Below the pieces are notes generated by a model, which saw only the letters and a program-made list of their open reading frames with translations, was not told where the DNA came from and did not search any database. Made by a program: the position numbers and the translations under genes. Below, one piece after another: positions 1 through 63,711 of a stretch of DNA of 64,000 bases. Positions within the stretch are counted from its first letter, which is position 1; each line of letters begins with the position of its first letter. The DNA comes from an uncultured Eubacteriales bacterium (GTDB taxonomy: Bacteria; Bacillota; Clostridia; Oscillospirales; Oscillospiraceae), in NCBI GenBank assembly GCA_900543625.1, contig UQSF01000001.1, positions 79,916-143,915 of the forward strand, given 5' to 3'.

Positions 1-409
1 GTGAAAGATACACGCCCAAAAAAAATTCCCGCGGCCAAAGCCCCGGAAACAGAATAGAAACATCGTGATAGATGCATCCTCGGCAGGATTTCCGCGGTCA
101 AGCCACCTGCTGTCTTTGGAGCGCTCCAATATAATACCAGACGTCTGCGCGCGTGTCAAGCATTTTTGCGGGCAAAAATGCATTTTCTCCTGCCGTGTGT
201 GCGCTTTTTAAAAAGCGAGATGCCCCCCGGAGGAGCACCGGAGACCATCTCAAAAATCCCACAAAAAACTTTTACCCTAAACTGCTATGGTCAGTCTAAC
301 AAATATTCTCACAAAAGTCAAGCCTCACTTGTGACAAAGCGAGGCGTCTGCGCATTTTGCACACAGGCGTGTAAGTCTGCTGCATATGCCGCAAAACCGC
401 ACGTTTTTT

Positions 410-2748: not shown

Positions 2749-3702
2749 ATGATCTGTCCAAAATGCGGCGCGCAGCTCTCTGACAGTGCCGTCATCTGCC
2801 GCGCCTGCGGTGCGATGCTTCCCGAGCATGCGCTCCCCTCGCAGCAGCCCTGCCGGCCGACGCAGCAGCCTGCGGGCAATGCCGCGCAGAATGTCTCCGA
2901 TACTCCGCGCACGTGCGCGCAATGCGGCGCTCCGCTTGAAGACGGTATGCGTTTTTGCACCAACTGCGGCGCGCCCGTTCCCGAGCGGCCCGACCCGGCG
3001 CAGTCCGCGCCGCCCCGGCAGGACACGGCCGCTTCCTTTATTCCGGGCGTCTGCCCGCATTGCGGCAGCCGCCTGAACCCCGGTGCGCGTTTTTGCACCG
3101 TCTGCGGCACGCGCGTACCCGAAGCGCCACAGGGCCAGACCGGCTGGTATGCGTCCGCGCCCGGCGGTGCGGTCTCCTCGCCGGAGATCGGCGCCAAGCA
3201 CAAGCCGAAAAAGCTGCTCATCGGTCTGCTGTGCGGCTTTGCCGCACTGGTCGTGATCGCGGCGGTCCTCATCGGCCTCTTTGCCGCGCACGGCGGCAGC
3301 CACGGTACGACCGGAAACACGGAGGTGGACCAGCTCATCGAGCGCTACTTCACGTATTTTGAAAACGACGATATCAGCGGCATGAACAAGATCTTCCTGC
3401 CGGAGGCGGTCGCCTTCATGCGGGATGATGACGACGGTCTGCTCACCGTTGAGGAGGCGATCGAAGAGCTCGACGACTGGTACAGCGACTATGGGCGAAC
3501 GATCGATGACTATGATATCTATGATTCCGACCGGCTCGATGAAGAGGATCTGACCCAGCTGGAGTGGGCGCTGGATGTGCGCATCGACGACAACCTTGTC
3601 GTCGCCTGTGACGTGACGTATGCAGGCGGCGCCGACGAGGATTTCTACTTTGAGTTCGTGCAGGTCAGCGGTCAGTGGTATCTGCTGTTTGCCATGGACT
3701 GA
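2749..3702 (+). CDS. membrane protein with three N-terminal zinc-ribbon (CxxC..CxxC) motifs, one TM helix and an acidic C-terminal domain
   Basis: ATG 2749 with AAAGAGG RBS; three CPxCG / CxxCG pairs, then hydrophobic LLIGLLCGFAALVVIAAVLIGLF, then a D/E-rich tail. Confidence 0.6.
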   Translation: MICPKCGAQLSDSAVICRACGAMLPEHALPSQQPCRPTQQPAGNAAQNVSDTPRTCAQCGAPLEDGMRFCTNCGAPVPERPDPAQSAPPRQDTAASFIPGVCPHCGSRLNPGARFCTVCGTRVPEAPQGQTGWYASAPGGAVSSPEIGAKHKPKKLLIGLLCGFAALVVIAAVLIGLFAAHGGSHGTTGNTEVDQLIERYFTYFENDDISGMNKIFLPEAVAFMRDDDDGLLTVEEAIEELDDWYSDYGRTIDDYDIYDSDRLDEEDLTQLEWALDVRIDDNLVVACDVTYAGGADEDFYFEFVQVSGQWYLLFAMD

Positions 3703-3712
3703 CCCCCAAAAT

Positions 3713-3752
3713 AACACCGCCCCCGGCAGCTTCGGCTGCCGGGGGCGGTGTT
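3713..3752. terminator. perfect GC hairpin (upstream copy of duplicated terminator core CCCCGGCAGCTTCGGCTGCCGGGG)
   Basis: AACACCGCCCCCGGCAGC-TTCG-GCTGCCGGGGGCGGTGTT; same core repeated at 3957-3980. Confidence 0.6.
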
Positions 3753-3950
3753 AGACTGTCAAAAAGTATTACTTTTTGACACGGGGATTTGCGGCCTGAC
3801 TGCAGCGCACGCGCCGCTCGCCAAAAGCGAACGGCGCGCACGTTTGCAGGCCGAGCAGTATTTTCTCAGCCGCACATGTCGCCTGAGAAAATGATCGGAC
3901 TTTCTTTCGCCGCTGCGGCGGCGAAACTCTACGAGGTTTTTGACAAGCTG
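3753..3950 (+). repeat. copy 1 of ~200-bp hairpin-rich intergenic repeat family (TGTCAAAAAG-palindrome element)
   Basis: starts AGACTGTCAAAAAGTATTACTTTTTGACA, ends TTTTTGACAAGCTG; conserved internal hairpins shared with copies at 37703, 43256, 51801, 63475. Confidence 0.85.
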
Positions 3951-3952
3951 AT

Positions 3953-3990
3953 ACGTCCCCGGCAGCTTCGGCTGCCGGGGACGTTTTTTT
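3953..3990. terminator. rho-independent terminator (downstream copy of duplicated hairpin) followed by T7 run
   Basis: ACGTCCCCGGCAGC-TTCG-GCTGCCGGGGACGT then TTTTTTT; sits between convergent genes. Confidence 0.7.
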
Positions 3991-3996
3991 GCGTCG

Positions 3997-6738
3997 TTAT
4001 GCCTGCACCTGCACACGGCTGCCGCCGCTGCGGTCTTTGGTAACGATGATCTGCCGGTCGATGCGCTCCTTGAGCTCCGCAACGTGGGAGATGATGCCCA
4101 CGATCCGGCAGCCGCCCGACACGCCCACGAGCGCGGTCAGCGCCTGCTGCAGCGCCTCGCTGTCGAGCGAGCCGAAGCCCTCGTCGACGAACATCGCCTC
4201 AAGCTGTACGCCGCCGGCGCTCGACTGCACCTCGTCTGACAGACCGAGCGCCAGCGACAGGGAGGCGGCAAACGTCTCGCCGCCGGAGAGCGTCTTGACG
4301 CTGCGCGCCGTGCCGTTGTAGTGGTCGACGACCTCGAGCTCCAGCCCGGTCTGACTGCGATTGTCGCCCGCACGCTCGCAGCGGCGCAGCTCGTACTGCC
4401 CGCCGGACATGATGAGCAGGCGCGTGTTCGCGCGCCCGAGAATGCGGTCGAAATACGCGGCCTGCAAAAACGCCTCGAGCGTAATCTTCTCCTGTCCGGG
4501 GATGGCGCCGTTCGCGGTCGCCGCCAGCGCGTGCACCCATTGCCAGCGCTCGTGCGCAGCGTCGTATTCCTGCCGCTGCGTGTCGAGCTTGGCGCGCGCC
4601 GTGCGGTTTTGCTGCAGCCGCGTGTCGAGGGCGTTCATCTGCGCCTGCAGCGCGTCGATGCGCGCGCTGAGTGCATCACACTGCGCTTGCAGCGCGGCGA
4701 TGTCCGCCGCCGGCGCGGCGTCTGTCTGCGTGTGCAGCGTGGCGATCTTTCCGCGCAGCTGCGCGCACTTGGCCTGCGCCGCAGCGTGCTGCTTTTGCGC
4801 CGTGTCAAGTGCCTGCCGCAGCGCCTCATGCTGCGTCTGTGCCTGTGTGAGCGCGGCCTTTGCCGCATTGCTGTCCGCGTGCGGCAGCTCGGCTGCACGG
4901 TTGGCTGCGGCGGCATCCAGTTCGTCGCAGCGCGCGGCACGCGCGGCGCAGTCGGTCTCACCGGCCTGGATCGCATCGCGCTGCTGCTGCAGCTTCGTCT
5001 CCTGTTCAGACAGCCCGTCTGCAAGCGTCTGCAGCTTATCGAGCTGCGCTCTCTGCTCCGCCAGCCGTCCGGCACAGCCGCGCGCGTCCTGCGCGGCTTT
5101 TTCCTGCAGCGCGGGGAGCGTTTGCGCCAGCGTCTTCGGGTCGAGCGGCGGCGTCAGCGCCGCGCACGCCGTTTCCAGAGCTTCACGCACGGCCGTGAGC
5201 TGCCCGCGCAGAGCAGCGGCCTTCGCGCTGCGTTCCTCGGCGTCTCGCTGTGCCCGCTCGCTGTCGGCTTTTGCGCGCTTGCGCGCGGCAGCGTCCGGCG
5301 TTTGCTCCGGCGCGGCGGCAGGGCAGGGGTGTTCCGTCGCACCGCAGACCGGGCAGGGCTGCCCGGGCGTGAGCGTGCGTGCAAGGATGCCCGCCTGTGC
5401 GTCGAGATAGGCGCGGTCGAGCGCGCTGTAGTATGCCGATGCCGCCTGTGCCGCCCCGGCCGCCTGCGTGTACTTCTCCTGCGCGGCTTCGAGCTTTTTC
5501 TGCAGCTCGGCGCACCGTTTGCGCTGCCGGTCGAGTTCGGTCAGCGCCTTGCATCGCTGCTCGGCCGCCTTCTGCTCCTGCGCGGTCTGCTCGGCGGCCA
5601 CGGCCAGCTTCGGCTGCTCGGCGAGCTGCTCACGTGCGCTTTTGCACGTCTGCTCCGTCGCCTGTGCCTGTGCGCGCGCCTGCTCCAGCGCTGCGGTTTT
5701 CTCCTCCAGCGCTTCGCGCGCGGCCTTGGCCTGTGCGCGCTGCTTGTCCAGCTGCTCGTATTGGCCGAGCGCGTCCTGAAGCCGCGCGATGTCCTGCAGC
5801 AGCTGCTCCATGTCCGGCTGCTTCGCTTCGGCGGTGTCGAGCGCCGTCCGCGCAGACGCCTGCTCGTGCTGCGCCTGTTGGAGGTCCGCCTCCGCCGTTT
5901 TCAGCTCTGCGCGCGCCTGTTCGACCGCCTGCGCCTTGCCGAGATCGGTGAGCAGGCGTGCGTGCTGCGCCTTTGCCTGCTCGTGCTTTGTGCCCGTCTG
6001 CGTCCGGACGTCTGCGTCTGCATCGATCAGTGCGTCGAGCGCCGTCAGCAGCGCGTCCGTGTCCTCTGCGTCCGGCAGCGCATCCGGGTCGTCGCAGCCG
6101 ATGGCCTCCGCCGTCGAACGCAGTGCCGCGACCAGCTCGCCGCACCTCTTTTCGAGCGCGGCGGCATCGTCCTTGAGCCGGTTTTGCAGCGCCAGATACT
6201 TTCCCGTGCGGAAGATCTGGCGGAAGATCGCCTTGCGCTCGTCCGTCTGGGCGAGCAGCAGACGGCGAAACTCTCCCTGCGCGATCATGGCAATGCGCGA
6301 AAACTGCGCCCGGTCCACGCCGATGACCTCCGTCACGGCGGCGGTCACCTCGCGCGTTTTCGTGATCACGCGCCCGTCCGGCATCGTCAGCTCGGCGTCC
6401 GCCTTCTGCACGGTCGTGCCGGTGCCGCGGGTTTTCGGGCGCGTATATTCGGGGTTGCGGCGCACGGTGTAGCGCTCGCCGCCGTTTGCAAATGTCAGCT
6501 CCACGAACGTCGGCGTCTCGGGCTCGGCATACTTGCTGCGCAGCATGGAGCTCTCGCGGGTCTCGCCGCTCGCCTCGCCGTAGAGCGCGTAGGCGATCGC
6601 ATCAAAGATCGTCGTCTTTCCGGCGCCGGTGTCGCCGGTGATGAGGTAGAGCCCGGTCGTGCCGAGCGCGTCAAAGTCCACGGTCGTCTGTCCGGCATAC
6701 GGTCCGAAGGCGGACATGGTCAGCTTCAGCGGTCTCAT
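3997..6738 (-). CDS. sbcC: exonuclease SbcCD ATPase subunit (Rad50-like, long coiled coil)
   Basis: N-terminal Walker A GDTGAGKTT, ~600-aa Ala/Gln/Glu-rich coiled coil, C-terminal ABC signature and D-loop; 913 aa. Confidence 0.85.
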   Translation of the reverse strand: MRPLKLTMSAFGPYAGQTTVDFDALGTTGLYLITGDTGAGKTTIFDAIAYALYGEASGETRESSMLRSKYAEPETPTFVELTFANGGERYTVRRNPEYTRPKTRGTGTTVQKADAELTMPDGRVITKTREVTAAVTEVIGVDRAQFSRIAMIAQGEFRRLLLAQTDERKAIFRQIFRTGKYLALQNRLKDDAAALEKRCGELVAALRSTAEAIGCDDPDALPDAEDTDALLTALDALIDADADVRTQTGTKHEQAKAQHARLLTDLGKAQAVEQARAELKTAEADLQQAQHEQASARTALDTAEAKQPDMEQLLQDIARLQDALGQYEQLDKQRAQAKAAREALEEKTAALEQARAQAQATEQTCKSAREQLAEQPKLAVAAEQTAQEQKAAEQRCKALTELDRQRKRCAELQKKLEAAQEKYTQAAGAAQAASAYYSALDRAYLDAQAGILARTLTPGQPCPVCGATEHPCPAAAPEQTPDAAARKRAKADSERAQRDAEERSAKAAALRGQLTAVREALETACAALTPPLDPKTLAQTLPALQEKAAQDARGCAGRLAEQRAQLDKLQTLADGLSEQETKLQQQRDAIQAGETDCAARAARCDELDAAAANRAAELPHADSNAAKAALTQAQTQHEALRQALDTAQKQHAAAQAKCAQLRGKIATLHTQTDAAPAADIAALQAQCDALSARIDALQAQMNALDTRLQQNRTARAKLDTQRQEYDAAHERWQWVHALAATANGAIPGQEKITLEAFLQAAYFDRILGRANTRLLIMSGGQYELRRCERAGDNRSQTGLELEVVDHYNGTARSVKTLSGGETFAASLSLALGLSDEVQSSAGGVQLEAMFVDEGFGSLDSEALQQALTALVGVSGGCRIVGIISHVAELKERIDRQIIVTKDRSGGSRVQVQA

Positions 6739-12559: not shown

Positions 12560-12635
12560 TGGTGCTCCAGCGGGGATTCGAACCCCGGACACCCTGCTTA
12601 AAAGGCAGGTGCTCTGCCTACTGAGCTACTGGGGC
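12560..12635 (-). tRNA. tRNA-Lys (anticodon TTT)
   Basis: 76-nt cloverleaf by eye; anticodon loop CTTTTAA; GGTTCGAATCC T-loop; CCA encoded. Confidence 0.9.
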
Positions 12636-12669
12636 ATATCGGTGTGAAAAGTTATCCGCTATCCAAAAT

Positions 12670-12760
12670 ATCAGACGCACCCAACAAATACTCAGACGCG
12701 AATCCAGCGAGAAATCCGCACCCAACAGATACTCAGACGCGAATCCAGCGAAGCGATTCG
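12670..12760. repeat. tandem direct repeat (2 copies of ~34 bp, period 41 bp) in the tRNA operon spacer
   Basis: GCACCCAACAAATACTCAGACGCGAATCCAGCGA at 12677 and GCACCCAACAGATACTCAGACGCGAATCCAGCGA at 12718. Confidence 0.6.
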
Positions 12761-12839
12761 CGGCTGAAGAAGGAGCTGGTGTTCGGAAACGGATGCTTTC
12801 TGCTTGCAGGAAGCAGGAGTTGGAAGAACATCAGCGACG

Positions 12840-12911
12840 TGGCTGGGATGGCGGGATTCGAACCCACGATATCAGAGTCAAAGTCTGGTGTGTTACCATT
12901 ACACTACATCC
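12840..12911 (-). tRNA. tRNA-Gln (anticodon TTG)
   Basis: 72 nt; acceptor TGGGATG/CATCCCA; anticodon loop CTTTGAC; CCA encoded. Confidence 0.85.
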
Positions 12912-12964
12912 CAATATCGGGGCAAAAATCATCGGGGATCGGGATCACTCCCAATCCCCGATTT

Positions 12965-13041
12965 CGTGGGGTGGGTAAAGGGGTTCGAACCCTCGACACC
13001 CGGAACCACAATCCGGTGCTCTCCCGACTGAGCTATACCCA
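12965..13041 (-). tRNA. tRNA-His (anticodon GTG) with encoded G-1
   Basis: extra 5' G pairing with discriminator C73; anticodon loop TTGTGGT; CCA encoded. Confidence 0.9.
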
Positions 13042-13053
13042 CCATAGGTCTGA

Positions 13054-13130
<77 letters not shown>

Positions 13131-13163
13131 GCGCATGCAATATTTGGCTGCCCGCCCAGAAGG

Positions 13164-13237
13164 TATGGAGCGGGTGATGGGAATCGAACCCACGTATCCA
13201 GCTTGGAAGGCTGGTGTTCTACCATTGAACTACACCC
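13164..13237 (-). tRNA. tRNA-Gly (anticodon TCC)
   Basis: 74 nt; acceptor GCGGGTG/CACCCGC; anticodon loop CTTCCAA; CCA encoded. Confidence 0.9.
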
Positions 13238-13264
13238 GCAGAGGTCGTCCCACAATCAGCTTTA

Positions 13265-21371: not shown

Positions 21372-21662
21372 TAGGGAGCGCCTGTGCGGAAACAGGTGCA
21401 TTCTGCGATGAAGCGGGAGATTGCGGAGCTGATCTCCGGTAACTTCCGTGGAGTATGTCCGCTGCCGCGCCTTTGCACGGCAGACAATCGGGCGGTTGAG
21501 TCAGCCAGCACCAGCGTATATCACCTGCACGGCTGCATACCGGCGAGAGCCGGTTTGTTTTTCGGGCAGGGTTTGATACGCACGGAACGGTGTATGGCGA
21601 TCTCATCCGTGCGAACCGGCGGAGCCAATGCCGCCCAAAAAATTCGTAACGGAGGAAACAAC

Positions 21663-37647: not shown

Positions 37648-37669
37648 GGTTTGCCCGAACACAAATCCA

Positions 37670-37702
37670 AATGCACCGACCGCTCTGCGGCCGGTGCATT
37701 TT
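37670..37702. terminator. terminator hairpin after rplQ (upstream copy; near-identical copy at 37905-37937)
   Basis: AATGCACCGACCGC-TCT-GCGGCCGGTGCATTTT; second copy differs only in loop (TTT). Confidence 0.65.
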
Positions 37703-37904
37703 CAGCTTGTCCAAAAACCTCGTAGAGTTTCGCTGCCGCCGCGGCGAAAGAAAGCCCAACCATTTTCTCCGGCGACATGTGCGGCGGAGAAAATACTTCT
37801 CGGCCTGCAAACGTGCGCGTTGTCCGCCTCCGGCGGACAGCGCGTGCGCTGCAGTCAGGCCGCAAATCCATTTGTCAAAAAAGTAGTACTTTTTTGACAG
37901 CCCC
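37703..37904 (-). repeat. copy 2 of the ~200-bp repeat family (reverse orientation)
   Basis: CAGCTTGTCCAAAAACC... ...TTTGTCAAAAAAGTAGTACTTTTTTGACAG; flanked by the duplicated rplQ terminator hairpin. Confidence 0.85.
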
Positions 37905-38009
37905 GAATGCACCGACCGCTTTGCGGCCGGTGCATTTTCTTGTTTTACACACAGGCATGCCCTGTGGTATAATAATCAATCGACAGACAGACAACAAGGA
38001 GGGACGTGT

Positions 38010-43220: not shown

Positions 43221-43254
43221 CAGCCCCGCTGCCGGGAAACCGGCAGCGGGGCTG
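43221..43254 (+). terminator. terminator hairpin after the binding-protein gene
   Basis: CAGCCCCGCTGCCGG-GAAA-CCGGCAGCGGGGCTG. Confidence 0.6.
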
Positions 43255-43255
43255 A

Positions 43256-43452
43256 CAGCTTGTCAAAAGCCTCGCAGAGTTTCGCCGCCGGAGCGGCGAA
43301 AGAAAGACCAATCATTTTCTTCGGCGACATGCGCGTCGAAGAAAATACTTCTCGGCCTGCAAACGTGCGCGCCGTCCGCCTTGAGCGGACGGCGCGTGCG
43401 ATGCAGTCAGGCCGCAAACCCCTTTGTCAAAAAGTAATACTTTTTGACAGTC
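43256..43452 (-). repeat. copy 3 of the ~200-bp repeat family (reverse orientation)
   Basis: shared internal hairpins; its TGTCAAAAAG end overlaps the TGA stop of the small membrane protein gene; no second flanking hairpin copy at this locus. Confidence 0.85.
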
Positions 43453-43705
43453 ACAGAAAAACGAAAAACAGCATCACGATCAGGTACGCGAACGCGAGCG
43501 TCATCGGCGCGAGTGCGAGTGCGGCGGTCAGCCGCCAGTCGTCCTCGCGCTCGACCGTGCCTTCATAGACCGGCTCCGCCATGGCGGCGAGTGAGCCGTG
43601 CAGATAGCTGCGGTAGAGCTTCAAAAACCGCTTTCCGTCGCGGCGGCCGGTGCTGTAGGCCGACTGCTCCGGTGTGCGGGGCTGCAGGGCGTGGTGTGTG
43701 CGCAT
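43451..43705 (-). CDS. small C-terminally membrane-anchored protein (84 aa)
   Basis: strong GAGGAGGAA RBS + ATG 43705; C-terminal TM LALAPMTLAFAYLIVMLFFVFL; immediately downstream of the PP2C gene. Confidence 0.55.
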   Translation of the reverse strand: MRTHHALQPRTPEQSAYSTGRRDGKRFLKLYRSYLHGSLAAMAEPVYEGTVEREDDWRLTAALALAPMTLAFAYLIVMLFFVFL

Positions 43706-46271: not shown

Positions 46272-48251
46272 ATGCACTGCACTGTGAAAATGACCGAGGA
46301 CCTGTACTGGGTCGGTGCGTCCGACCGCCGTCTGGCGCTGTTTGAGAGCGTGTATCCCATCCCGCGCGGCGTGTCGTACAACGCCTATGTCCTGCTCGAC
46401 GAGAAGACCGTCCTGCTCGACACGGTGGATCAGTCCGTCGCCGGTCAGTTCTTTGAAAATCTCACCCATGTGCTCGGCGGCCGTCCGCTGGACTACATCG
46501 TCGTGCACCACATGGAGCCGGACCACGCCAAGACGCTCGAGGAGACCGTGCGCCGTTATCCCGAGGCGAAGATCATCTGCAACGCGAAGATCCGCGACAT
46601 GATCCGCAACTACTTCACCTTTGACATCGACAGCCGCGCCATCCTCATGGCCGAGGGCGGCACCTACTGCTTCGGCAAGCACACGTTTGCCTACGTCATG
46701 GCGCCGATGGTGCACTGGCCGGAGGTCATGGTCAGCTTTGACACCACGACCGGCACGCTCTTTTCCGCCGACGCCTTCGGCACGTTCGGCGCGCTCAATG
46801 GCAACCTCTATGCCGATGAGTATGACTTTGAGCACGACTGGCTGCCCGATGCCCGCCGCTACTACACGAACATCGTCGGCAAGTACGGCACGCAGGTGCA
46901 GGCGCTGCTCAAGAAGGCAGCCACGCTGGATATCCGCATGATCTGCCCGCTGCACGGTCCGGTCTGGCGCAAGAACATCGGCTGGTTCGTCGATAAGTAC
47001 AGCAAGTGGAGCTCCTACACGCCCGAGCAGGACGGCAGCGTGCTCATCGCTTACTCCTCCGTCTACGGTCACACCGAAAACGCGGCGCAGGTGCTCGCGA
47101 CCATGCTGGCCGAGCGCGGCGTGCGCAACATCGCCATGTACGACGTCTCCGTCACGCACCCGAGCTATGTCGTGGCCGAGGCCTTCCGCTGCAGCCACCT
47201 CGTGTTCGCGTCCACGACGTATAACGCCGGCATCTTCTGCAACATGGAGACGGCGCTGCTCGACATCGCGGCGCACAACCTCCAGAACCGCACCATCGCC
47301 CTGATCGAAAACGGCTCCTGGGCGCCGACCGCCGGCAAGCTCATGCGCGGCATCCTCTCCAAGCTCAAGGACGTGACCATCCTCAATGAGACGCTCACCA
47401 TCAAGTCCTCGCTCAAGGACGATCAGCTCGCAGCGCTCGCCGAGATCGCGGACGCGCTCGTGGCCTCCATGCCGAAGCCGCGCCCGATCGTCAACGAAGG
47501 CAAGCAGAATCCCGCCGCGCTCTTCAAGTTCCAGTACGGCCTGTTTGCACTCTCCGCCCGCGAGGGTGACAAGGACAACGCCTGCATCATCAACACCGCC
47601 ATCCAGATGGCCAACAAGCCCGAGCGCATCTCCATCTCGGTCATCAAGGCCAACCACACCTGCGGCATGATCGAGCGCACCGGCGTCTTTAACCTCTCGC
47701 TGCTGACGAAGGAAGTGCCGTTTGCCTTCTTCCAGCACTTCGGCTTCCAGTCCGGCGCGGAGGTGGACAAGTTCGCAGACTGGAGCGACTGCGCCCGCAG
47801 CGACAACGGTCTGTATTACATCAACCGCTACACGAACGCCATGTTCTCCTGCCGCGTCGTCGAGAGCTATGATCAGGGCAGCCACCGGCTGTTCATCGCC
47901 GAGATCACGGAGTCCAAGCTCTTCAGCAACGACGAGACCGTGACCTACGACTACTACCGCAGCCACATCAAGCCCGCTCCGCCGAAGCTCGCCCCCGCCG
48001 AGAAGGCGACCTGGGTCTGCTCCGTGTGCGGCTATGTGTACGAGGGCGAGACGCTCCCGGCCGATTTCATCTGCCCGCTGTGCAAGCACCCGGCGTCCGA
48101 CTTCGTCAAGCACGAGGCCAAGCCCGCGGAAAAGCGCGTCGGCTTTGTGTGCACCGTCTGCGGCTACGTGTACGAGGGCGCGGACATGCCGGATGACTTC
48201 ATCTGCCCGCTGTGCCACCACCCGAAGTCCGATTTCAAACCGCTTACGTAA
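46272..48251 (+). CDS. multidomain flavodiiron protein: FprA core (MBL diiron + flavodoxin) + flavin-reductase-like domain + two rubredoxin domains
   Basis: diiron HHMEPDH motif; two C-terminal CxxCG...CPxC rubredoxin repeats (WVCSVCGYVYEG / FVCTVCGYVYEG). Confidence 0.85.
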   Translation: MHCTVKMTEDLYWVGASDRRLALFESVYPIPRGVSYNAYVLLDEKTVLLDTVDQSVAGQFFENLTHVLGGRPLDYIVVHHMEPDHAKTLEETVRRYPEAKIICNAKIRDMIRNYFTFDIDSRAILMAEGGTYCFGKHTFAYVMAPMVHWPEVMVSFDTTTGTLFSADAFGTFGALNGNLYADEYDFEHDWLPDARRYYTNIVGKYGTQVQALLKKAATLDIRMICPLHGPVWRKNIGWFVDKYSKWSSYTPEQDGSVLIAYSSVYGHTENAAQVLATMLAERGVRNIAMYDVSVTHPSYVVAEAFRCSHLVFASTTYNAGIFCNMETALLDIAAHNLQNRTIALIENGSWAPTAGKLMRGILSKLKDVTILNETLTIKSSLKDDQLAALAEIADALVASMPKPRPIVNEGKQNPAALFKFQYGLFALSAREGDKDNACIINTAIQMANKPERISISVIKANHTCGMIERTGVFNLSLLTKEVPFAFFQHFGFQSGAEVDKFADWSDCARSDNGLYYINRYTNAMFSCRVVESYDQGSHRLFIAEITESKLFSNDETVTYDYYRSHIKPAPPKLAPAEKATWVCSVCGYVYEGETLPADFICPLCKHPASDFVKHEAKPAEKRVGFVCTVCGYVYEGADMPDDFICPLCHHPKSDFKPLT

Positions 48252-51744: not shown

Positions 51745-51800
51745 ACCGCATTTTATAACGAAAAAGAGAGCTTGTCACGAATCGTGACAAGCTCTCTTTT

Positions 51801-51974
51801 CAGTTTACCAAAGAACCTCGTAGCCTTTCGCCGCCGCAGCGGCGAAAGAAAGTCCGATCATTTTCTTCGGCGACATGTGCGGCGAAGAAAATACCGCTCA
51901 GGCTGCAAGTGTGGAATTTGTGCGCGCAGCAGACTGCAATCCCTTTGTCAAAAAGTATTACTTTTTGACAGTCT
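51801..51974 (-). repeat. copy 4 of the repeat family (reverse orientation, shorter: lacks the central variable hairpin)
   Basis: flanked by hairpins AGAGAGCTTGTCACGAATCGTGACAAGCTCTCT (51765-51797) and AGAGAGCTTGTGACAAGCTCTCT (51977-51999). Confidence 0.8.
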
Positions 51975-52015
51975 CAAGAGAGCTTGTGACAAGCTCTCTT
52001 TTTTGCGCCCTGCGC

Positions 52016-63438: not shown

Positions 63439-63472
63439 TACGGCGCCGGACGGAGATCCCGTCCGGCGCCGT
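63439..63472. terminator. terminator hairpin (upstream copy; identical 35-bp copy at 63673-63707)
   Basis: TACGGCGCCGGACGG-AGATC-CCGTCCGGCGCCGTG present identically on both sides of repeat copy 5. Confidence 0.7.
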
Positions 63473-63474
63473 GG

Positions 63475-63672
63475 AGACTGTCAAAAAGTAATACTTTTTG
63501 ACAAAGGAGTTTGCGGCCTGACTGCAGCGCACGCGCCGTCCGCCCAAGGCAGACGGCGCGCACGTTTGCAGGCCGAGAAGTATTTTCTTCGCCGCACATG
63601 TCGCCGAAGAAAATGATCGGACTTTCTTTCGCCGCTCCGGCGGCGAAACTCTACGAGGTTTTTGGACAAGCT
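63475..63672 (+). repeat. copy 5 of the ~200-bp repeat family, flanked by a perfect 35-bp duplication
   Basis: GAGACTGTCAAAAAGTAATACTTTTTGACA... ...GGTTTTTGGACAAGCTG. Confidence 0.85.
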
Positions 63673-63711
63673 GTACGGCGCCGGACGGAGATCCCGTCCG
63701 GCGCCGTGCGT

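Follow-up and report, generated by a model that had tools for sequence, protein, structure and literature searches.

A ~195-bp MITE-like repeat with covarying hairpins, probably inserted at terminator-like stem-loops, in Vescimonas-like gut Clostridia

Copies of the repeat in the window, its anatomy and its hosts

The window, by which we mean the whole 64-kb stretch of DNA that was analysed, comes from an uncultured bacterium of the Oscillospiraceae. Rfam matches place an L10 leader at 11-137 (-), an S10-Clostridia leader at 21400-21487 (+) and five clustered tRNA genes at 12563-13239 (-), which is consistent with the ribosomal-protein region of a Clostridia chromosome. Two internal tandem duplications were seen within coding sequence, at 48015-48236 and 2896-3122; one is a pair of Cys-x-x-Cys-Gly motifs with a rubredoxin-like look (80% identity), and the other is a zinc-ribbon-like pair (71%). 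Distributed over the window are five copies of a repeat of ~195 bp. The copy described in most detail here, copy 2, adjoins rplQ and lies between two copies of the terminator hairpin of that gene. The copies, their flanking hairpins and the parts of copy 2 are as follows.

3753-3950 (-): copy 1, with flanking hairpin copies at 3953-3984 and 3715-3750
37667-37703 (+): left copy of the rplQ terminator hairpin, CCAAATGCACCGACCGCTCTGCGGCCGGTGCATTTTC, a target duplication with 37903-37939
37703-37904 (+): copy 2 of the ~195-bp element (nhmmer E=7e-68)
37703-37717 (+): left terminal inverted repeat of copy 2, CAGCTTGTCCAAAAA
37728-37749 (+): H1 of copy 2, TTTCGCTGC-CGCC-GCGGCGAAA; the loop motif of the family is CGCA
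37762-37794 (+): H2 of copy 2, ATTTTCTCCG-GCGACATGTGCGG-CGGAGAAAAT, with a covarying stem and a conserved apex, CGACATGTGCG
37801-37862 (+): H3 of copy 2, a long hairpin with outer stem CGGCCTGCA/TGCAG..GGCCG and inner hairpin GTGCGCGTTGTCCGCC-TCC-GGCGGACAGCGCGTGC
37872-37900 (+): H4 of copy 2, TTGTCAAAAAAG-TAGTA-CTTTTTTGACAG; the right terminal inverted repeat (37890-37904) is formed by the 3' arm
37903-37939 (+): right copy of the rplQ hairpin, with loop TTT, not TCT, and followed by a T-run
43256-43453 (+): copy 3, with a hairpin on the left side only (43221-43254)
51801-51976 (+): copy 4 (subfamily 2), from which 22 nt of the inner H3 hairpin are deleted
63475-63673 (-): copy 5, with identical 35-nt hairpin copies at 63674-63708 and 63439-63473

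The hairpins that flank copy 1 share a core and have different outer stems, yet each outer stem is self-complementary. Copy 4 is flanked by hairpins at 51765-51797 and 51977-51999, of which the right one lacks its loop.

Read in the orientation of the element, the family begins with the left inverted repeat CAGCTTGTCAAAAA, followed by H1 (TTTCGCCGC-CGCA-GCGGCGAAA), a conserved linker AGAAAG..ATCA, and H2, which consists of TTTT, six variable nucleotides, CGACATGTGCG, six further variable nucleotides and AAAA. H3 is a long hairpin of two tiers, of which two subfamilies exist, and H4 (TTGTCAAAAAG-loop-CTTTTTGACAG) forms the right inverted repeat with its 3' arm. The terminal inverted repeats are imperfect and ~14 nt long, with the consensus CAG[C/A][T/C]TGTCAAAAA; about 12 of 14 positions match between CAGCTTGTCAAAAA and the complement of TTTTTGACAGTCT(CA), as in the terminal inverted repeats of a MITE. 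At one locus (L062), the two variants of the repeat are swapped between the element ends. Single-base gaps between copies rule out a conserved open reading frame. In distant members of the family, H4 resembles a terminator in that it is composed of an A-tract, a GC stem and a T-tract. No Rfam 15 family matched the element at gathering score, the best sub-threshold match being nadA with 21 bits against a cut-off of 37.5 bits, and the element contains no promoter-like site. One such site, belonging to the downstream response-regulator gene, is located past the right flank.

An exact-pattern scan, with one genome taken per species, placed the repeat at 34 loci in three uncultured Oscillospiraceae/Clostridiales genomes, two of which are ~94% identical to the window across shared regions. 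Vescimonas fastidiosa MM35, the sole named carrier found, has the element at 21 places on its 861-kb second replicon (chromid), 9 of which were read. More distant members are present in human-gut contigs, and a metagenome scan, in which the pattern fixed only the H2 apex and the T/A runs and left six variable stem positions free, returned at least 120 loci. The rplQ protein that adjoins copy 2 is on record in 10,832 assembly blocks, indicating that the host lineage is very common. The element is widespread in Vescimonas-like gut Clostridia.

Covariation of the stems and strand tests

The preliminary description of this DNA had noted that copies 1, 2 and 5 differ in H2 in a paired way, and this is precisely so: the stem reads TTTTCTCAG/CTGAGAAAA in copy 1, TTTTCTCCG/CGGAGAAAA in copy 2 and TTTTCTTCG/CGAAGAAAA in copies 3-5. 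It had also described a central hairpin, the inner part of H3, that varies in stem and loop. Such variants are present in copies 1, 2, 3 and 5, but two of the loops had been quoted as their reverse complements; on the plus strand the loop is TCC, not GGA, in copy 2 and CTTGA, not TCAAG, in copy 3. Copy 4 has not lost this hairpin entirely, as had been thought. It belongs to subfamily 2, in which the inner hairpin is a different one (GGAATTTGTGCGCC..GGCGCACAAATT), and carries the 22-nt deletion of it; the corresponding alleles of other strains (L046 and L049) retain an intact inner hairpin.

When the four-hairpin structure was imposed on 39 subfamily-1 copies, 96.4% of the cells paired. Two-sided changes occurred in 8 pairs, as compared with 3.5 +/- 1.1 in shuffled alignments (0/500), and the covariation score was 0.067 against 0.042 in shuffled alignments and 0.012-0.032 in slid registers. 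The 19 copies of subfamily 2 and V. fastidiosa gave two-sided changes in 49 cells, against 14.6 +/- 2.8, with a covariation score of 0.225 versus 0.080 shuffled. On both sets, none of 500 shuffles reached the observed covariation. The metagenome copies provide the cleanest test because the search pattern had left the variable stem positions free. Among the matches listed, H2 was represented by 27 distinct stems, 21 of them fully paired at the five outer positions, and a mean of 4.78 of these five positions paired, as compared with 3.10 +/- 0.16 when partners were shuffled (0/5000). The paired changes are therefore confirmed to exceed chance, and the compensatory nature that had been proposed for them from the window copies is borne out by the larger copy sets.

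The hairpins also persist in other genomes. In distant members, all four stems are rewritten and the loops CGCA and CGACATGTGCG are unchanged. Examples from V. fastidiosa and other hosts are the H1 stems TTTGCCGCC/GGCGGCAAA, TTCGCGTC/GACGCGAA and ATTCCGGCGC/GCGCCGGAAT, the H3 inner stems AATTTTGAGCC/GGCTCAAAATT and AATCGCCCGCC/GGCGGGCGATT, and the H4 stem GGCAGAAAATTCC/GGAATTTTCTGCC. When a 5' half was joined to the 3' half of a different copy, the resulting chimeric hairpins lost on average 2.3-5 kcal/mol of stability relative to native hairpins. The compensated H2 variants TTCG/CGAA, TCCG/CGGA and TCAG/CTGA were found repeatedly at several unrelated loci, whereas each of the uncompensated variants (L007, L014 and L004) was private to a single locus, a distribution that fits selection among transposing lineages.

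Several observations bear on whether the folded molecule is RNA or DNA. The orientation of the element with respect to A- and T-runs was unbiased (10 loci with A only, 7 with T only, 3 with both and 9 with neither). In V. fastidiosa, the neighbouring genes are convergent around five copies, divergent around two and tandem around another two, and the latter are both antisense to transcription. The idea that the element is co-oriented with the gene upstream of it fits all five copies in the window, but was rejected on the larger set and on the inverted alleles found at rplQ. At the variable positions, G.T mismatches were about as frequent as A.C mismatches (29 versus 26 cells in one alignment, and 8 versus 4 in the other). 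A residual asymmetry points the other way: two G.T pairs of H3 are conserved in subfamily 1 and subfamily 2 alike, and folding is slightly more favourable for the top strand than for the bottom one in 56 of 58 copies with DNA parameters and in 42 of 58 with RNA parameters. The tests of orientation and of mismatch type did not favour a small-RNA gene, and such a gene is not supported. The structured small RNA that the preliminary description had offered as one explanation does not agree with the lack of a promoter-like site and of orientation bias, the two orientations at rplQ, the equal frequency of A.C and G.T, or the decay by deletion described below; an independent small-RNA gene, expected to have its own promoter, a fixed orientation and pairing that tolerates G.U but not A.C, is not supported on the first two of these grounds together with the count of 29 G.T against 26 A.C.

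Loops were found to be flipped between copies. The H3 apex loop alternates between TCC and GGA and between TTG and CAA, and the loops of the two flanking hairpins, or of filled and empty orthologs, are reverse-complemented at L005, L019, L058:45362, L001/L014 and L004/L032. Reverse-complemented loops reveal copying or inversion at the DNA level between the arms of a palindrome. Copying of this kind can yield paired changes without selection, so that covariation argues less strongly for selection here than in an ordinary RNA gene. The fixed loops, however, lie beyond what such copying can explain. The earlier conclusion that conserved structure implies selection is accordingly correct in that the structure is kept amid sequence drift, both in this genome and in distant relatives, but it has to be tempered, given that arm-to-arm copying mimics paired changes.

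Flanking hairpins, empty sites, arrays and decay

At 29 of 48 independent loci (~60%), a locus-specific hairpin is directly repeated on both flanks of the element. These flanking repeats, which far exceed null comparisons (99th-percentile score of 25), are 25-46 nt long (median 32), different at every locus, and fold as stable stem-loops of -15 to -37 kcal/mol. They begin 0-5 nt from the element and reach 0-4 nt past the stem on each side. The hairpin is likewise duplicated in 30 of 83 metagenome copies among the matches listed. The remaining 19 of the 48 loci have no hairpin duplication, which counts against a transposon origin. Many of the flanking hairpins carry A- and/or T-runs and are positioned at gene ends, and thus look like intrinsic terminators. 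After insertion, the T-run was often kept by the distal hairpin copy and often lost from the proximal one; transcripts are therefore predicted to read into the element from either side.

Two empty sites were found in genomes that are ~94% identical to the filled ones. At L014:3870-3894 there is a single hairpin, aaaaCAGCCGCTCCC-ggtc-GGGAGCGGCTGtttt, which in the orthologous L001 flanks the element left and right. The second empty site is at ~5250 of L032; the corresponding site of L004 is filled (4975-5171), with GCGCAG (6 nt, on the right side) as the sole repeat, a further point against a transposon origin. Between them, the two pairs of sister genomes, each with a filled and an empty site, decide in which direction the inference runs. 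At rplQ the element is present in nearly all strains; in L035 and L037 it is inverted between hairpins that are not flipped, and belongs to a different sequence lineage. In one rplQ allele (L040:3342-3521, GCA_027494335.1) the element is absent, and an unrelated 46-nt filler is located between a complete and a half copy of the hairpin.

In L020:7036-7711 (CAKTPP010000003.1), three hairpin-plus-element units are arranged head to tail with a period of 238 bp. Units 1 and 2 are identical and unit 3 differs in the H3 apex. By analogy, the arrangement looks like a CRISPR-style repeat-insert array. Remnants of neighbouring elements that have a hairpin in common were seen at L009/L016 and L011/L030, and solo end fragments lie next to a hairpin at L034 and L029. 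Inserted copies decay by deletion, which occurs between short repeats in H3, from H1 to H2, and in the right hairpin or its loop; either H3 or H1-H2 has been deleted without replacement in many strains of the species. Copies have also exchanged parts. The orthologous elements L004:1380-1576 and L032:1653-1850 have the same unusual ends (H4 loop GGA and a TTTC tail), and the central H3 module is of subfamily 2 in the former and of subfamily 1 in the latter, indicating module exchange or gene conversion between copies.

Classification, possible mobilisation and rival explanations

The repeat is a non-coding sequence of ~195 bp with five copies in 64 kb and 34 loci in three genomes. It has terminal inverted repeats, a target duplication at 29 of 48 loci, and empty sites in L014 (3870-3894) and L032 (~5250). 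Apart from a demonstrated partner, the family meets the description of a MITE. The comparisons themselves establish that a non-coding element with inverted repeats goes into stem-loops and that a complete stem-loop is then present on each flank, along with both orientations at one locus, covariation and decay. We consider it probable that the repeat is a non-autonomous, MITE-like DNA transposon that is inserted at terminator-like hairpins by an enzyme acting in trans, with duplication of the hairpin. The proposal that follows concerns where the stem base is cut, what type of enzyme acts and why the hairpins are maintained, all of which we infer from the arrangement of the copies. A putative enzyme provided in trans would insert the element at GC-rich, terminator-like stem-loops. 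It would bind the inverted repeats and probably also the conserved loops on folded DNA, and its two strand transfers would flank the stem base of an extruded hairpin or cruciform, at points that are near in space and 25-46 nt apart in sequence. If strand transfer takes place on either side of the stem base, then gap repair would duplicate the whole hairpin, and each new hairpin copy would again be a target, which could generate the hairpin-element-hairpin arrays. The internal hairpins and the fixed loops CGCA and CGACATGTGCG may be kept because transposing lineages need them as folded DNA or as protein-binding sites, and arm-to-arm copying within the palindromes might help the arms stay complementary. 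Individual inserted copies would be unprotected and hence would decay.

This proposal leaves some observations aside. A plain staggered cut followed by fill-in does not predict the flipped loops or the differing, self-complementary outer stems at copy 1, and the loci that have a hairpin on one side only are also unaccounted for by the proposed mechanism. The loops conserved in distant hosts and the members without inverted repeats (L064 and L065) could point to a host or RNA function.

No candidate enzyme emerged from the sequences searched. We found no transposase with matching ends in ~1.6 Mb of loci, and no autonomous partner was revealed by separated or solo ends, by repeated segments longer than 350 bp among the loci, by plasmid and phage collections, or by one scan of IMG/VR. 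In 240 kb of annotated V. fastidiosa chromid, no transposase is listed. Hairpins directly repeated 0.4-5 kb apart were limited to REP palindromes, a tandem nhaC duplication and one 500-bp segment with an HTH gene. The nhaC duplication (L058:24004-28730, V. fastidiosa chromid) is a tandem repeat of ~2.99 kb that comprises two nhaC-family antiporter genes and in which the terminator hairpin is repeated too.

One alternative interpretation treats the core of the element, H1-H3 and the terminator-like H4, as a structured RNA. Such an RNA would be a small RNA or a 3'-UTR module acting in cis and carried on a mobile backbone, and covariation would reflect selection for RNA folding. In its favour, stems covary around invariant loop motifs in distant hosts, H4 is organised like an intrinsic terminator in many members, H3 contains two conserved G.T pairs, and the top strand folds better. 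Moreover, L064, a divergent member without inverted repeats, is positioned immediately 3' of a stop codon and has a proper terminator, and the MITE-like bcr1 repeat of B. cereus is both transcribed and marked by compensatory changes (PMC3184786). These points have to be weighed against the absence of a promoter-like site from the element and of an Rfam match, an orientation that is unbiased with respect to terminator polarity and to the annotated genes of V. fastidiosa, the occurrence of both orientations at rplQ, the equal frequency of G.T and A.C mismatches, and the loss of H3 or H1-H2 without replacement in many strains. Overall, a structured RNA is unlikely. Another interpretation requires no selection at all: palindrome arms, and likewise separate copies, would exchange sequence by template switching or gene conversion, this purely mutational process would create the paired changes, and hairpins would simply persist. 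The reverse-complemented loops in H3 and the flanking hairpins, the central module swapped between orthologs with identical ends (subfamily 2 in L004 and subfamily 1 in L032), the symmetric G.T and A.C counts, and the different self-complementary outer stems of the copy-1 flanking hairpins all speak for such events. Yet the four hairpins, their positions and their loop motifs survive at ~70-78% identity in many hosts, with nearly every stem rewritten; 21 of 27 independent H2 stems among the matches listed are fully paired; and the fixed loops CGCA and CGACATGTGCG are left unexplained. We regard mutation as the sole cause as quite improbable.

The preliminary description had also raised the possibility of DNA hairpins recognised by a recombinase, as at IS200/IS605 ends or attC sites. 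That the repeat is mobile DNA agrees with our results, but the specific systems named do not fit. On this view, a Y1/HUH transposase or an integron integrase would act on single-stranded hairpins of the repeat, which would then count as a palindrome-associated element of the IS200/IS605 type, as a site like integron attC or as a REP/REPIN unit. Its subterminal hairpins and palindrome association are compatible with this, as are the GTAG-type REP palindromes in the same genomes. However, terminal inverted repeats and a long target duplication are both present, and no conserved 4-5-nt target lies at the left end of the element, where the adjacent bases vary (GTA, TTT, CTC, GCT ...); an IS200/IS605-type (PATE) element was rejected on these grounds. 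An integron attC site was rejected since the flanking hairpins are unrelated between loci, lack R/L boxes and the GTTRRRY core, and are located at ordinary gene ends. REP/REPIN was rejected since the unit is a 195-bp sequence with four hairpins, as opposed to the 20-40 nt of a REP, and the flanking hairpins are unique to each locus and are not a repeated REP. This whole class of explanation is very improbable. The REP-like palindromes themselves are short, GC-rich and headed by GTAG/CTAC, e.g. CGTAGGGGCGGGCGGACAGAGGCGTCCGCCCC; they were seen at L058:23709-29290, L059:44310 and 48252, and L141:53 and 3232, and at L141 the element adjoins one of them.

Returning to a MITE-like transposon inserted at terminator hairpins, the closest known behaviour is that of IS1272/TnSha1 (IS1182 family, staphylococci), which targets terminator hairpins by structure, without a primary-sequence consensus, inserts in both orientations and uses the same hairpin repeatedly (PMC4923244, Furi et al. 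2016). Insertion of IS1272/TnSha1 deletes part of the stem-loop and generates no target duplication (PMC4923244), whereas the ~195-bp element duplicates the whole hairpin. Furthermore, IS1272 encodes its own transposase, whereas the element is non-coding and no partner was found in ~1.6 Mb. The match to the IS1182 family, which gives 0-60-bp repeats, lies in hairpin target behaviour only.

In its general character, the repeat is like bcr1 and the group-A repeats of the Bacillus cereus group, non-coding intergenic repeats of Firmicutes with compensated hairpins and decay. bcr1 is a mobile repeat of ~155 bp (Okstad 2004; Klevan 2007; PMC3184786) that is transcribed, has a multi-hairpin fold held by compensatory changes and includes structurally decayed copies (PMC3184786). 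It duplicates 5 bp at a sequence target (PMC3184786), as compared with the 25-46-nt hairpin duplicated by the ~195-bp element, and we detected no sequence similarity between the two. Long direct target repeats (27-28 bp) are known from the IS1202 subgroup of the IS1202 family, the ends of which begin with TGT (bioRxiv 10.1101/2022.12.17.520857). The inner inverted repeat of the ~195-bp element is TGTCAAAAA, conserved for 5 nt past the TGT. The length of the IS1202 duplication is fixed per subgroup, with no report of a length set by a hairpin (bioRxiv 10.1101/2022.12.17.520857); a fixed long duplication of the IS1202 type was rejected for the ~195-bp element, around which the length tracks each stem-loop.

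The Correia, ERIC, RUP and BOX-type MITEs are, like the ~195-bp element, small, structured, non-coding intergenic repeats. They can be co-transcribed with neighbouring genes and make short, sequence-defined duplications (e.g. TA), and we know of none that duplicates an entire terminator. In Cas1-Cas2 and casposon integration, insertion on both sides of a ~30-nt palindromic unit duplicates the unit and builds repeat-insert-repeat arrays. The likeness to CRISPR and casposons is an analogy only, given that the hairpins around the ~195-bp element are locus-specific and that there is one conserved insert with inverted repeats. Our literature search found nothing specific on a terminator-duplicating MITE or on repeats of Vescimonas.

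We tentatively raise a more specific possibility, which we would not call likely, namely that a putative integrase or transposase of gut Clostridia reads extruded terminator hairpins by their shape and joins the element across the stem base. If so, the length of the duplication (25-46 nt) would be set by structure and not by the enzyme, a terminator copy would be kept on each side for the neighbouring genes, repeated insertions would build CRISPR-like hairpin-insert arrays, and the enzyme would recognise folded DNA by a code formed of the invariant loops CGCA and CGACATGTGCG on their covarying stems. A target duplication sized by the structure of the target is uncommon among bacterial transposons and would point to recognition of a cruciform or hairpin by the mobilising enzyme. 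Such insertion would be self-insulating in that a terminator hairpin is left on each side, often with the T-run at one copy only, which could explain both the high copy number and the fixation of the element in a very prevalent gut lineage.

The family also calls for caution in RNA discovery, since strong covariation and conserved loops can arise in mobile DNA palindromes; tests of orientation, strand asymmetry and loop flipping are advisable before a structured RNA is called. By virtue of its orientations, deletions and arrays, the element is a convenient strain-level marker in Vescimonas-like bacteria.

Two further loci have repeated hairpins around other sequences. At L030:5480-5960 (-), the flanking hairpin is present in triplicate, and its third copy delimits another insert, ~135 nt long and with ..GGAACAG as its end, which may be a second element type with the same mode of insertion. 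At L155:4628-5186, identical 30-nt hairpins (AAGGAGGACAGGCGTTTGCCTGTCCTCCTT), the starts of which are 529 nt apart, enclose ~500 bp with a small HTH-like open reading frame, and this pair resembles the hairpin duplication around the ~195-bp element.
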